Shown here: positions 32,314 to 43,763 of the stretch, in pieces
How positions within the stretch are numbered: the stretch's first letter is position 1
Layout of the letters: every line of letters starts with the position of its first letter
Assembly (NCBI GenBank): GCA_048940645.1
Contig: JBHLOI010000011.1
Location: 18,204-82,203 of the forward strand
Reading direction: 5' to 3'
Origin: Promethearchaeota archaeon
GTDB taxonomy: Archaea; Asgardarchaeota; Lokiarchaeia; Sigyniarchaeales; SOKP01
DNA: 64,000 bases
Program-made: the position numbers and the translations under genes
Notes under the pieces: model-generated
Databases searched by the model: none
What the model saw: only the letters and a program-made list of their open reading frames with translations
What the model was told of the DNA's origin: nothing

Positions 32314-32328
32314 TATTTAAAGAAAAAA
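32314..32328 (-). promoter_or_regulatory. T6C-TATA element
   Basis: Minus strand TTTTTTCTTTAAATA, 53 nt before ATG 32268; the T-run may double as the tfb terminator. Confidence 0.6.
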
Positions 32329-32361
32329 AATAGAATAAATAAAAGAAAAAAAATATTGGTG

Positions 32362-33627
32362 CTAGATTATAAGATCTCCATTAAATTGCGGAGGCCCTTT
32401 CACTTTCCAAATGCCTAAATCAAACAACTGATTATTAATAATAACAGGTTTCTCATTCTCTTTTGATGTTGAGAAATTTTCTTCAAATAGATTTTTAACT
32501 GCGTTTTTATTTACCTCACAAGAGATAAACATTGTATTATTTTCCAAGTCTCTTAACGCATAAAAATAATATTCATTATTATCATGCGGATTGAATATTT
32601 GCATCGCATTGCCTAATTCAATCTCGATTATTTCAGGAGCTATTTTTTCATTTTCTTTGAATTGATCTAATAATACACCAAGGTGTTCCATCACTTTTTT
32701 TAACAAATCAGCAGATCGTACCAAGCTTTTAAATCCAGGAATACGGAGGCGATTAAATATCTTTCTCTCTACTTGTTTATGAATAGTACTCATTCGAATA
32801 TTTAACCTATTACAAATATCACTTACTGTAATTGGATTTTCTGGCAAACAGAGAACAGAAATAGAGGTAGCCACTCCTACTACTACATCATCTTTAGTAT
32901 TTTTAATTGAATCCCATAATCTATATAGGATTTTTTTTGATTGATAATAAAAATACATTCCCAATCCAAAATGTTCGGTTAATTCCATAATTCTCTGAAG
33001 AATATACTCTTTTCGATTTCTCTCTTTATATTCTGGCATGAATTCATTAATCTGGAGCTTAAATGCTTGAAAATCTTTTTTAGAAATTTTTGCTACATCT
33101 AATAAAGCTCGCTCATCCACCGGTTTACATTCATATTTGTATGTGAAGTATATTACTATTGGAACCAATTTTTCAGGGCTTCTATATTTTGTACCATGAC
33201 CTAACTTTGTATGAATTTGTTTAAAGTTCTTTAAGATTTTACTCTTATCTGTAGCTGGGAGAGAAAGAGCTTCAAATATTCTGCCAATTTCAATAATAGC
33301 TTTTATTTCTACATTTTCATCATTACTTTTAATTGAATCAATCCTATTTAACCGTTCTAATCGATATGATTGAGGATTTCGTAATCTTTCTCGTTTGAAT
33401 CCAATTTTTGTTTTCCCAGGTGTGGCATATTGTAAAATATCTTCATTATAGGGCCGATGATATTGCATAATCTGGATGGGAAGCATTACTCCACAATCTT
33501 TACAAACAAATCCAAACTCATTTTGGATTATATCTGTTGAATTACATATATCACATCTTAACGAAGTACGCATCTCAACTTTATTTAATTGAGATTTATT
33601 ATGGGTTGCCAACTTAATCACAATCAC
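32362..33627 (-). CDS. tfb: Divergent transcription factor B (TFB/TFIIB) paralog with C-terminal extension
   Basis: Zn ribbon CDIC...FVCKDCG; cyclin repeat 1 AIIEIGRIFEALSLP...RSPEKLVPIVIY; repeat 2 HTH TVSDICNRLNIRMSTIHKQVER. Start uncertain (33627 GTG, or downstream TTG/ATG). Confidence 0.85.
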   Translation of the reverse strand: MIVIKLATHNKSQLNKVEMRTSLRCDICNSTDIIQNEFGFVCKDCGVMLPIQIMQYHRPYNEDILQYATPGKTKIGFKRERLRNPQSYRLERLNRIDSIKSNDENVEIKAIIEIGRIFEALSLPATDKSKILKNFKQIHTKLGHGTKYRSPEKLVPIVIYFTYKYECKPVDERALLDVAKISKKDFQAFKLQINEFMPEYKERNRKEYILQRIMELTEHFGLGMYFYYQSKKILYRLWDSIKNTKDDVVVGVATSISVLCLPENPITVSDICNRLNIRMSTIHKQVERKIFNRLRIPGFKSLVRSADLLKKVMEHLGVLLDQFKENEKIAPEIIEIELGNAMQIFNPHDNNEYYFYALRDLENNTMFISCEVNKNAVKNLFEENFSTSKENEKPVIINNQLFDLGIWKVKGPPQFNGDLII

Positions 33628-33740
33628 AAATTTTCTTAATTACTAAGTTAAAGAAGATGGGGAGTGGCCTTTTTAAATCTTATCCTCTTGATCAGAAATG
33701 ACTGATAGAATCTTTCTAATCACAAATTAGATTTTTCCAC

Positions 33741-33785
33741 TTATGTAAAAATGGGTAAAATTTCCATTTTATCGATCACCTCCTC
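33741..33785 (-). promoter_or_regulatory. Perfect SD (GAGGAGGTGA) plus 8-codon upstream ORF MEILPIFT ahead of tfb
   Basis: SD at 33776-33785, ATG 33767, TAA 33741-33743. Confidence 0.5.
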
Positions 33786-34039
33786 ATGATCTGAATTGAG
33801 GAAAAGTTGATATTATCATTAAAACGTTAAAATAAAGCTAAGTTTAAATCGCAAAATTGTATTAAACCCAAGATTTAGCTAATTTGGATTAACTAGAAGA
33901 TTTTAGATTTTTTACTTTTAGTAAAAGTTATTACTTTTCTTTGTGTTTAGTTTTTAGAAAGTGAAAAAAAATCCACTCCCAGTTAGCAGGAAACACAATT
34001 AAAACAATTTTTTTGACAAAAAAAATGCACCTAGAAGTT

Positions 34040-34066: not shown

Positions 34067-34210
34067 AAAAAAAATTACTGGGATCAAGAAAATTAATTGG
34101 AGAAAAACTTTCTGGAATGTAAGTTGCAAATGGAAAATCTTTTAAAGAATTTTTTAAAAACAACCCGGAAGGAATAAACTTTTAACTTTCTTCTTCTTTT
34201 TTTTTTAAAA

Positions 34211-34225
34211 TTTTTCCTTTATATA
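34211..34225 (+). promoter_or_regulatory. T5CC-TATA element (leaderless spacing)
   Basis: TTTTTCCTTTATATA, exactly 29 nt before ATG 34247, divergent context. Confidence 0.75.
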
Positions 34226-43166: not shown

Positions 43167-43763
43167 ATGGCAGATACTATCGCAAAAAAGTTAATGCCCA
43201 CTAGTGTTTTAGTAAAAATTCTTCTTGATTTTTCCTCAAAATCTACGGTATTGAATTACCTATTCCGGAAAAAAAGTTTCGTTGATTCCCATGAAAATAT
43301 CTTAGTTCTTTCCGATTTCACTATTAATAAAATTTCCCAAGAAGTAAATGTTCCTTTTGATACAACCGAAGGAATTATTATCCAATGTTTACTTAATATG
43401 TTTTACTTTAAACGTGCCTTAAATTGTGTTAGATTCATATGGAACAATGATATGGAAAAACTCAGGCGGAGATTAAGGGTATATTTATATAAAGCACATC
43501 GAATTGCTCCTGTGTTTGATTATAAACGAGCCAGGACAAATAGTGAAACTCTCATTACATTAATGAAGAGGAGTTGCTATTTCCCGCGATTCACTACTCA
43601 GCTTGCTTTAGTAATATATGTAACTGATGCGAATAACCAGCATAAAATCTTTGATACGCCCATTCTCCAGCGGAATCTACGAGCTTTTTGCGATTGTTCT
43701 GCATTTGCCTTTCATCGAGCAAGAAATAAGTTGAGAATAAATAATCAAGGTAAAACTTATTAG
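43167..43763 (+). CDS. Protein with C-terminal TFB-like cyclin/HTH repeat, no zinc ribbon
   Basis: QLALVIYV...LQRNLRAFCDCSAFAFHRARNKL aligns gap-free to the TFB pattern AAAALYI...TQREVAEVARVTEVTVRNRYKEL. Confidence 0.5.
   Translation: MADTIAKKLMPTSVLVKILLDFSSKSTVLNYLFRKKSFVDSHENILVLSDFTINKISQEVNVPFDTTEGIIIQCLLNMFYFKRALNCVRFIWNNDMEKLRRRLRVYLYKAHRIAPVFDYKRARTNSETLITLMKRSCYFPRFTTQLALVIYVTDANNQHKIFDTPILQRNLRAFCDCSAFAFHRARNKLRINNQGKTY

Follow-up and report, generated by a model that had tools for sequence, protein, structure and literature searches.

A divergent TFB of Loki-type Asgard archaea and a class of T-run promoters confined to its gene island

What does a Loki-type Asgard archaeon whose genome already encodes nine canonical TFBs (295-310 aa) do with another, very divergent one? 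The question is raised by an open reading frame in the window that we analyzed, a 64,000-nt stretch of one contig from a Promethearchaeota archaeon. In its longest form (32362..33627, minus strand), this ORF has 421 codons and begins with GTG at 33627. The true start is most likely TTG at 33612, because homologs begin with MATHN or MASLN there. (The Atlas record begins at residue 6, which matches this start.) The coding sequence would then span 32362..33612 (minus strand) and encode 416 aa, with the stop codon at 32362-32364. An earlier reading of the locus, made from the DNA sequence alone, had described a TFB paralog with several rewritten parts. The ORF exists as described in that sequence-only reading, and the HTH at 32764-32829 maps exactly to residues 267-288.

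The product of this ORF is a full-length, very divergent member of the TFB/TFIIB family. Identity to canonical TFBs is ~15-18%, and the assignment as a TFB paralog is borne out by both fold and profile. Using hhalign, we aligned the protein to the genome's nine canonical TFBs with a probability of 98.8% (E = 7.9e-16, 272 columns), and the register is kept from the ribbon to the end of the second cyclin fold. Foldseek's top matches are exclusively TFIIB, TFB, Brf1, or Brf2 (TM 0.75 by target). In VIA, the best match is the core of P. woesei TFB (1d3u_B; Z = 16.0, rmsd 3.1 Å, 196 of 201 residues, residues 98-306 of the model), and TFB and TFIIB chains score Z = 14-16.

The N-terminal zinc ribbon of TFIIB-type proteins is a polymerase-recruiting module. 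Here, a C4 ribbon (33478..33564, minus strand; residues 22-50) aligns with the TFB ribbon in hhalign, and its cysteines (C25, C28, C42, and C45) are invariant across 40 homologs. (All of our figures for residue conservation are from this 40-member alignment of the family.) Pfam's ribbon model (Zn_Ribbon_TF, PF08271) has weak matches in 35 of the 40 members, with a best E of 4.5e-5; the divergent TFB itself has E = 1.3e-3 and 18.7 bits, which is under the 29-bit cut-off. The TFIIB repeat model (PF00382) reaches its threshold for neither repeat and has weak matches in 5/40 members. In other words, the HMM search that had been suggested as a check gave a weak ribbon match below the cut-off, and did not reach the repeat model. 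The two cyclin folds are supported by the structure match and the profile match. The first (33019..33327, minus strand; residues 101-203) has an AF2 pLDDT of ~85, and comparing the family profile to PDB matches the first cyclin repeat of human TFIIB (E = 0.006). The second (32674..33018, minus strand; residues 204-318) is placed by the VIA superposition and the hhalign register. When the cyclin core (residues 100-320; alignment of 40 rows) was modeled in complex with the genome's TBP (alignment of 18 rows), the prediction had a score of 0.00 and a mark of 0.32, which argues neither for nor against binding.

We found the family in 53 of the 68 sampled genomes from one GTDB family and in none of 232 genomes of 29 other Asgard families. 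With this distribution among the searched genomes, the suggested TFB phylogeny across Asgards is not applicable. In some genomes, the gene is present in 2-5 copies, and there are also fragments that contain stop codons. In a genome from the sister family to which the cultured Lokiarchaeia belong (G213), a profile search found canonical TFBs only. (These include a 467-aa TFB with an N-terminal extension.) Similarly, the 259-aa protein encoded next to the divergent TFB had no match in four genomes of that sister family. No Pfam model covers the divergent family, which slips past Pfam's TFIIB repeat model, and public records describe its members as "hypothetical", as "DC1 domain-containing", or as generic TFIIB/Brf1 or TFIIB-type zinc-ribbon proteins. 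Our searches of the full-text literature turned up neither this family nor any Asgard promoters of the T-run type.

We then examined the residues that would contact DNA. The HTH at the BRE-reading position (32764..32829, minus strand; residues 267-288, TVSDICNRLNIRMSTIHKQVER) lies opposite the canonical TQKEISLAAGVTEATIRNRYKE without gaps in hhalign. Compared to canonical TFBs, Gln is replaced by Val268, Val or Ala by Ser280, and Arg by His283; the profile-profile alignment thus confirms the change of Gln, Val, and Arg to Val, Ser, and His that had been read from the sequence. The canonical Val and Arg (..VTxR..) are at positions that we take to contact the BRE (V283 and R286 in human TFIIB, and similarly in complexes of P. 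woesei TFB). Neither residue is kept (S280 and H283), and the HTH itself is present and in register. The family's recognition helix has the pattern MST(I)(H/Q)xQV, with five invariant residues (M279, S280, T281, Q285, and V286); position 283 varies between His and, in some members, Gln. So, the sequence changes are real, and they are not peculiar to a single gene but family-wide in the 40-member alignment.

The segment between the ribbon and the first cyclin fold (33328..33477, minus strand; residues 51-100) replaces the B-reader and B-linker and is ~15 residues shorter than in canonical TFBs. As the sequence-only reading had it, HRPYNED (residues 57-63) stands where canonical TFBs carry GPEWRAF (or SGRRAY or NERRAY), and hhalign against the canonical TFBs agrees. 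Y56, P59, and Y60 are invariant in the 40 members, and 9 of the segment's 50 columns are at ≥90% conservation. The mean frequency of the top residue is 0.62, versus 0.61 and 0.67 for the two cyclin folds. This segment has low pLDDT in the AF2 model of the monomer. To be conserved like the folded core and yet predicted to be disordered is what we would expect of a segment that folds on a partner. Because the reader/linker is so altered, normal promoter opening cannot be assumed. Both the DNA-reading helix and the segment that would reach the polymerase have been rewritten and then fixed across the family.

A C-terminal extension is present, as proposed: 103 residues follow the end of the cyclin core near residue 318. 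It comprises a variable spacer (residues 319-334) and a small domain (residues 335-421), together at 32365..32673 (minus strand). The small domain has a strand-strand-helix-strand arrangement with the motifs LGNAxxVFN and KGPP. Conservation in this region is lower (0.35). When folded alone by AF2 with 132 homologs, the domain has a pLDDT of 75.4. Searching PDB with Foldseek gave nothing convincing (best E = 0.78), and the best of 48,161 chains in VIA had Z = 3.5, with weak recurring matches to Pur-alpha repeats (Z = 2.4-3.2). In the ESM Atlas, matches by shape had TM of at most 0.45, and there were no usable matches by features.

What might the rewritten helix read? The motif TTTTTCTTTWWAWA occurs 64 times in the 3.83-Mb genome, and 16 of these 64 copies lie within a 41-kb island that includes the gene for the divergent TFB. 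The island is 1.07% of the genome, so 0.68 copies would be expected. With a looser form of the motif, 18 of the 20 island copies are 35-87 nt ahead of an ORF and in the sense orientation. In the island's promoters, T makes up 62-79% at positions -7 to -2 before the TATA box, and C makes up 67% at position -1; for the rest of the genome, the corresponding values are ~38% T and ~10% C. The T-run lies directly upstream of the TATA box, exactly where a TFB's helix binds, and its usual archaeal counterpart at this position is the A-rich element (BRE). One of the 20 island copies is just beyond the divergent TFB (32314..32330, minus strand): the next gene downstream, for a 779-aa prenyltransferase-like protein, starts 59 nt after TTTTTTTTCTTTAAATAT. 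The equivalent of this protein also has a T-run promoter in two orthologous loci (L021 and L024). On the other side, the divergently transcribed neighbor, which encodes the 259-aa membrane protein, has such a promoter at 34199..34225 (plus strand), with TTTTCCTTTATATA at 34212, 35 nt before the gene.

This promoter class is local to the island. In island-free genomes, copies of the motif are scattered, at the control level. Motif counts across whole genomes do not separate gene-bearing from gene-free genomes within the genus; because the island adds about as many copies as the genomic background already has, these counts are uninformative and only the clustering is informative. (In one genome, G267, 12 copies of the motif are on the contig that bears its copy of the gene.) Also, family members with His at position 283 of the helix and those with Gln have the same T-run-C-TATA type of promoter, so we do not see covariation between the helix and the motif.

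The gene for the divergent TFB is at one syntenic position in this island, which is ~40 kb of recombination and membrane genes: a second RadA, FEN1, an RPA-like OB protein, a Hel308-like helicase, other helicases, and membrane proteins. Gene order is identical in five distant loci, down to 47% identity, and all five have T-run promoters. (The TFB-like proteins of these orthologous islands are 47-62% identical.) Part of the family does not have the island, and of 15 sampled genomes of the family that lack the TFB-like gene, 10 are without its island neighbor as well.

If the divergent TFB controls these genes, what controls the divergent TFB? Its likely core promoter, as judged from its position, is at 33653..33690 (minus strand). 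It has a purine-rich GAGGATAAGA, then the TATA box TTTAAAAA (33677-33670), and then a box, CACTCCCCATCTTC (33666-33653), near the expected start site. Across the aligned upstream regions of 11 loci, the core-promoter block alone is conserved down to orthologs of ~47-50% identity. The gene's own promoter lacks the T-run in all 16 loci examined. The claim that the T-rich element is missing upstream of the gene therefore holds both here and in five orthologous loci, and a purine-rich BRE-like element and TATA box with no T-run fit a factor at the top of a cascade. We also considered whether the box beside the gene's TATA, ACTSSNSATCTT, might be a regulon-wide motif, but it has 10 matches in the genome and does not occur in those orthologs that are most distant; its conservation is local. 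A search of the 620-bp upstream spacer against Rfam gave only a sub-threshold match to the model of a Burkholderia sRNA.

We propose that the divergent TFB is the dedicated initiation factor of its optional ~40-kb island, that is, a switch like a sigma factor. We would put the probability of this at roughly 0.6. From the sequence evidence, we infer the binding of TBP, DNA, and polymerase, the recognition of the T-run, and the order of events. First, the housekeeping machinery would transcribe the TFB gene from its ordinary purine-rich BRE/TATA promoter, probably with control at the conserved box beside the start site. Second, the divergent TFB, which keeps the ribbon and both cyclin folds for recruiting RNA polymerase and for seating on TBP-DNA, would bind TBP at the island's promoters. 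Third, its altered helix would read the T-run plus C, which replaces the A-rich BRE directly upstream of TTTAAATA. Fourth, its ribbon would recruit RNA polymerase. Finally, ~20 transcription units, including those for RadA, FEN1, the RPA-like and Hel308-like proteins, helicases, and membrane proteins, would switch on jointly.

This proposal is well motivated, but it rests on association. Since the TFB gene and the T-run promoters are in the same island, their co-occurrence is not independent evidence; and with the association inside one island, another factor, encoded by the island or by the host, could read the T-run. A caveat is a genome from the same genus (G264; 99% complete by markers, in 110 contigs). 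We did not find the TFB-like gene anywhere in its assembly. At the junction, the membrane-protein gene and a 986-aa gene are 205 bp apart, with the TFB-like gene missing from between them. Nevertheless, the island's ORFs are intact and retain their TTTTTT(A/C)TTTAAATA promoters, which counts against a dedicated factor.

The T-run promoters that G264 keeps without the gene would also fit a divergent TFB that is a co-activator like TFB3 of Sulfolobus. Such a protein would work in trans alongside a canonical TFB, and the T-run would be recognized by something else or would act through DNA shape. The loss of the canonical BRE-contact residues also fits this explanation, but we consider it unlikely. 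TFB3 is a truncated protein that lacks much of the reader/linker and core; the divergent TFB is not truncated in this way and has both cyclin folds complete. Furthermore, the surface residues of the HTH are invariant across the family, which is hard to explain if the helix contacts nothing, and the T-run is directly upstream of the TATA box, at the site of a TFB's helix. In favor of the co-activator, not every TFB paralog works as a canonical TFB does: TFB3 cannot replace TFB and activates in trans, and it controls genes for DNA damage and DNA exchange (PMC7289017), a theme like that of the island.

A different view of the island is that it is an integrated element or its remnant, whose TFB captures the host's RNA polymerase for the element's genes, a role that has been proposed for TFB homologs in Asgard viruses and other mobile elements. 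This overlaps with our preferred explanation, and the main difference is the nature of the island. Viruses of Asgard archaea and elements targeted by CRISPR do encode TFB homologs (bioRxiv 10.1101/2021.07.29.453957), not all of the family has the island, and some genomes have the multiple copies and broken fragments noted above. Still, a mobile element seems quite unlikely to us. Pfam scans of 30 island ORFs found no integrase, capsid, or replication-initiator families, and the gene has the same chromosomal neighborhood in loci down to 47% identity. We found no sign of a viral origin either: searching 2.9 million viral contigs from IMG/VR with the family's two most conserved peptide patterns turned up no relatives.

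It is very unlikely, in our view, that the divergent TFB is a negative regulator or decoy, which would hold RNA polymerase or TBP by means of its ribbon and core, without productive initiation, and so damp transcription of the host or the island. Paralogs of archaeal transcription factors can become inhibitors (TFS4 is an example), and the B-reader and B-linker, which canonical TFBs need for template loading (PMC7289017), are replaced and shortened. However, the segment that stands in their place has not decayed and shows strong conservation. Neither a conserved DNA-reading helix nor a private class of promoters is needed by a decoy, and the gene has a fixed syntenic place beside genes that bear T-run promoters.

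We largely discount a role outside of transcription, in which the divergent TFB would be a DNA-binding, cyclin-fold component of the machinery for replication or recombination in the island, akin to ORC6 (a TFIIB-fold protein of eukaryotic replication): although RadA, FEN1, an RPA-like OB protein, and helicases are among the island's products, and although human ORC6 is among the structural matches (Z = 11.7 in VIA) and Pfam's ORC6_2nd has faint matches in 2/40 members, the better matches, which extend over the full core, are to TFB and TFIIB (Z = 14-16, versus 11.7 over 137 residues for ORC6), the TFIIB-type ribbon and conserved connecting segment make up a polymerase-recruiting module, and the profile match to the genome's TFBs is in register from the ribbon through the core.

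If the divergent TFB is indeed the initiation factor of its island, why would this matter? Archaeal TFB paralogs bias promoter choice. One with a cleanly different upstream element in a single island would resemble an alternative sigma factor more clearly than any other archaeal example. The prediction that the rewritten helix should read TTTTTTC beside a TATA box is directly testable with recombinant protein. The island's genes (the second RadA, FEN1, the RPA-like and Hel308-like proteins, and the membrane proteins) suggest a switchable DNA-handling program. Going further, a private code of T-run plus C, along with the protein's own C-terminal domain, might run a self-contained program of DNA recombination or exchange, but of this we are doubtful. 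If it were so, then the TFIIB/Brf/Rrn7 style of division of labor, in which dedicated TFIIB-like factors with added C-terminal domains each serve one class of promoters, would also have arisen in archaeal relatives of eukaryotes, and one cell would contain a natural pair of orthogonal BRE codes. The occurrence of this family in Asgard archaea bears on how one polymerase system came to use several TFIIB-like factors, and hence on the origin of eukaryotic transcription.

How does the divergent TFB compare to known systems? It shares its architecture with canonical archaeal TFBs (the P. woesei core, PDB 1D3U/1AIS): a ribbon, a connecting segment, and two cyclin folds, with the HTH in the second. 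Unlike them, it has Ser and His or Gln at the BRE contacts, HRPYN in a shorter connecting segment, and an added C-terminal domain of ~100 aa, and it is associated with T-run promoters instead of an A-rich BRE.

TFB2 and TFB3 of Sulfolobus are paralogs of the general factor that are dedicated to a program, and the theme of TFB3 resembles the island's recombination genes. We know of no distinct BRE code that replaces the A-rich element for either of them. TFB2 occupies the promoters of division genes (bioRxiv 10.64898/2026.09.06.749720) and also its own promoter, whereas the island motif does not occur in the divergent TFB's own promoter. DNA damage induces TFB3, which governs the DNA-damage and DNA-exchange response and acts in trans with a canonical TFB (PMC7289017). 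Unlike the truncated TFB3, the divergent TFB is full length and, in fact, longer than the canonical TFBs. The TFBs of haloarchaea are ordinary, are detected by Pfam, and differ subtly in their BRE preferences. Having several TFBs per genome gives haloarchaea some promoter selectivity (PMC7289017). The host genome, with nine canonical TFBs and the divergent one, also has multiple TFBs, but the divergent family is outside of Pfam's models and is tied to a compact island with a sharply different upstream element. Viruses and mobile elements of Asgard archaea likewise carry TFB homologs on accessory DNA (bioRxiv 10.1101/2021.07.29.453957); in contrast, the divergent TFB is at a conserved chromosomal position, and our search of IMG/VR with two peptide patterns found no relatives.

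In eukaryotes, Brf1, Brf2, and Rrn7/TAF1B also combine a ribbon, two cyclin folds, and a C-terminal extension, and each serves one class of promoters. In VIA, Brf1 chains score Z = 14.0-14.7 and Brf2 ~12; no Rrn7 chains are among the structural matches listed by Foldseek or VIA. Zn_ribbon_RRN7 has a faint match (E = 0.01) in 2/40 members. In Brf1, homology blocks near the C-terminus bind TBP. Neither a Brf1-type family nor an Rrn7 cyclin model ranks within the top 25 by frequency of the 42 Pfam families matched by the 40 members (E ≤ 0.1). The divergent TFB's C-terminal domain matches nothing, and its host has a single RNA polymerase. We view the resemblance to Brf and Rrn7 as one of logic and not as evidence of common descent. 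The same is true of bacterial alternative sigma factors, which are unrelated in protein family and in mechanism. There, the analogy is that one dedicated factor and one motif make a set of genes switchable as a unit.

The protein encoded by ORF 32362-33627 (minus strand, 421 codons from a GTG) is hard to recognize with standard family models. The sequence-only reading had suggested an HMM search as a check on its TFB assignment. In Pfam, the TFIIB zinc ribbon was seen, but below threshold (E 1.3e-3, 18.7 bits versus a cut-off of 29), and the TFIIB repeat was not matched; the NCBIfam score was 17.8 bits versus a threshold of 384. (The nine ordinary TFBs in this genome each have two repeats above the Pfam threshold, and six of the nine are 295-310 residues long, counted from the first ATG.) Profile comparison was more sensitive. 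When a profile of 40 homologs was aligned with hhalign to one built from the nine canonical TFBs, the match had a probability of 98.8% (E 7.9e-16) and spanned 272 columns, from the ribbon through the end of the second cyclin fold. Against the PDB, the same 40-homolog profile matched the first cyclin repeat of human TFIIB (E 0.006). The AlphaFold2 model (mean pLDDT 67.6; about 85 over residues 100-320) retrieved exclusively TFIIB, TFB, Brf1, and Brf2 down to rank 42 in Foldseek. With VIA-align, the model superimposed on the Pyrococcus woesei TFB core from a TBP/BRE/TATA complex (PDB:1d3u_B) with Z 16.0 and an rmsd of 3.1 Å over 196/201 residues; Z was 13-16 for TFIIB chains, 14.0-14.7 for Brf1, about 12 for Brf2, 11.7 for ORC6, and about 10-11 for cyclins. 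Given the profile alignment and the structural matches, this is a TFIIB-fold protein, nearest to TFB/TFIIB, and its membership in the TFB family is secure.

We then examined the DNA-binding helix. Residues 267-288 (numbered from the GTG at 33627) are TVSDICNRLNIRMSTIHKQVER and map exactly to 32764-32829; in the hhalign register they lie opposite the canonical TQKEISLAAGVTEATIRNRYKE. The substitutions proposed from the sequence are all present in this register: Val268 replaces Gln, Ser280 stands at the Val/Ala position, and His283 replaces Arg. We take Ser280 and His283 to correspond to V283 and R286 of human TFIIB, which contact the BRE (based on the complexes of human TFIIB and of P. woesei TFB). 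The B-reader is also replaced, as had been proposed: residues 57-63 read HRPYNED, there is no GPEWRAF-type motif between ribbon and core, and this stretch is about 15 residues shorter than in canonical TFBs. Beyond residue 318, a variable spacer leads to a small strand-strand-helix-strand domain with the motifs LGNAxxVFN and KGPP. Modelled alone (132 homologs), this domain reached a pLDDT of 75.4 and had no convincing match in the PDB or the ESM Atlas.

These features recur across the family, for which a word-indexed search found 374 homologs of 400-445 amino acids and an exhaustive one yielded 353 clusters (50% identity). In the 40-member alignment, the four ribbon cysteines and Y56, P59, Y60, G76, E80, R81, M279, S280, T281, Q285, and V286 are invariant, and position 283 is His or Gln. 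Judging from the alignments, the rewritten helix and the other changes are family traits under selection. Over 179 members, conservation is 0.62 in the reader/linker versus 0.61 and 0.67 in the cyclin folds, and 0.35 in the C-terminal domain. Because the reader/linker is disordered in the monomer model yet well conserved, it probably folds on a partner. In TFBs, the partner of this segment is the polymerase cleft (PMC7289017).

The sequence-only reading had also alluded to a T-rich element. We tested this and found (A)TTTTTT-C-TTTAAATA upstream of about 20 genes of the ~41-kb accessory island that holds the TFB-like gene. The form TTTTTCTTTWWAWA has 64 copies in the 3.83-Mb genome, with 16 in the 41-kb island versus 0.68 expected. 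With a slightly looser form, 18 of 20 island copies lie 35-87 nt before an ORF in sense orientation; of the 131 copies outside the island, 49 lie within 200 nt of any ORF. Ahead of the island's TATA boxes, T makes up 62-79% at positions -7 to -2, and C makes up 67% at position -1; in the rest of the genome these values are about 38% and about 10%. In archaea, the BRE normally lies directly against the TATA box, is enriched in A, and is read by TFB through its second cyclin fold (PMC7289017), so the T-run is at precisely the site the altered helix would bind. All five orthologous islands have this promoter type, and in G267 the motif clusters on the contig bearing the TFB-like gene. In three genomes without the island (G213, G183, and G159), the motif occurs only at scattered sites, with a frequency matching that of the reversed-pattern control. 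Outside the window, well-placed T-run promoters also occur near contig ends of the same genome: three within 3.2 kb on C12 (2773-5960) and one each on C117 (335) and C119 (2196), before ORFs of 745 and 599 amino acids. They could be additional island fragments or members of the regulon located elsewhere.

The TFB-like gene itself has a different promoter. Its start is more likely TTG 33612 (416 amino acids), because homologs begin with MATHN or MASLN there, an SD-like GTGAT(C) stands ahead of it in every close relative, and the public Atlas record begins at that position. In an alignment of 11 upstream regions, a single block is retained even in the most distant orthologs and consists of a purine-rich stretch, TTTAAAAA (33677-33670), and CACTCCCCATCTTC (33666-33653), all on the minus strand. 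The position of the box CACTCCCCATCTTC, close to the start site, would be suitable for a repressor. None of the 16 loci examined has a T-run directly ahead of the gene, in agreement with the earlier reading, which had suggested a place for the gene at the top of a cascade. A promoter with a purine-rich stretch and no T-run fits transcription by the housekeeping machinery and also that position. Further upstream, a block at 33730-33800 (minus strand) is kept in relatives of 62-90% identity. It has a hairpin (CCTCA...TGAGG) overlapping a perfect Shine-Dalgarno sequence, GGAGGTGATC, after which come an ATG and a short ORF (8-15 codons; MEILPIFT* in the window). It has no Rfam match. Candidate explanations are a leader peptide, a very small gene, or a hairpin that masks the SD.

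Gene order around the TFB-like gene is largely shared by five loci whose TFB-like proteins are 47-62% identical to the window's, and the window has the same order. On one side, divergently, are RadA, a 125-aa protein, a ~240-aa AAA protein, a ~114-aa protein, and a ~255-aa membrane protein. On the other side, the TFB-like gene is followed by genes for a 750-995-aa prenyltransferase-repeat protein (which four of the five loci have; neither L072 nor the P0110 contig has a call for it), a ~195-aa protein, a DEAD helicase, and DUF1922. Also encoded in the wider island, at about 10-51 kb of the window, are a Hel308-like helicase, an HhH membrane protein, a radical-SAM protein, FEN1, an RPA-like OB protein, a small GTPase, and numerous proteins without an assigned family. 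One ORF with a T-run promoter, of 198 aa (43167-43763, plus strand), has no Pfam family and, by single-sequence hhalign, resembles neither the divergent family nor canonical TFBs (probability under 1%).

Using the family profile (E no greater than 1e-10), we found the gene in 53 of the 68 genomes sampled from the window's own GTDB family; across 29 other families in the phylum, the same search found it in none of 232 genomes. Five homologs that are 45-64% identical (P0010, P0011, P0014, P0020, and P0063) carry NCBI or submitter labels of Odin-, Hod-, Thor-, Heimdall-, or Hermodarchaeota; because the genome search places the family in a single GTDB family, these labels are probably unreliable. 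Some genomes (G171, G210, G129, G273, and others) have 2-5 copies plus short fragments interrupted by stop codons. Fifteen of the sampled family genomes do not have the gene, and ten of these are also missing the neighbouring prenyltransferase-like gene (779 aa in the window). In three others, the contig terminates exactly at the expected site (G249, C8; G231, C43; G198, C177); the gene may break assemblies, for instance through several similar copies. G138 is unclear. The last, G264, is of the window's genus and has an intact junction, with the membrane-protein gene and a 986-aa gene 205 bp apart, and the TFB-like gene is absent from the junction and from the whole rest of the assembly.

We also noted TBP and TFB genes elsewhere. 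Our genome (89.6% complete) has nine canonical TFB genes versus one two-repeat TBP found; in related genomes, the number of TBP matches ranges from one to four. Outside the window (C83:2329-2550), an ORF of 417-432 aa contains just one TBP-type repeat (Pfam TBP, 75 bits), and such ORFs recur across the family beside the normal two-repeat TBP (G077, G065, G132, G057, G049, G150, G304, and G312). In the closed sister-family genome G213, a 467-aa canonical TFB (L031, C1:1308672-1310075) has an N-terminal extension of about 170 aa.

What does the protein do? We put the probability at roughly 0.6 that it is the reader of the T-run promoters, a putative role that rests on association. This is the simplest account because a fixed, rewritten BRE helix goes with a promoter class altered at the BRE position, because both are confined to one accessory island, and because the factor's own gene has a canonical promoter. 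G264 is a real caveat, and we saw no covariation between the helix variants at position 283 and the promoter motif. It is unlikely that the protein is instead a co-activator resembling TFB3. A factor serving a mobile element is less probable again: TFB homologs are reported on Asgard viruses and mobile elements (bioRxiv 10.1101/2021.07.29.453957), but we found no relatives of this family in IMG/VR. We give still less credence to a decoy. An ORC6-like role outside transcription is the most improbable.

If the protein does read T-run promoters, it is a variant of a known theme, TFB paralogs with their own target sets. Full-text searching found no description of this family or of T-run promoters in Asgard archaea. 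What sets it apart from known TFB paralogs is the sharply different upstream element, a divergence beyond the reach of Pfam, and the added C-terminal domain.
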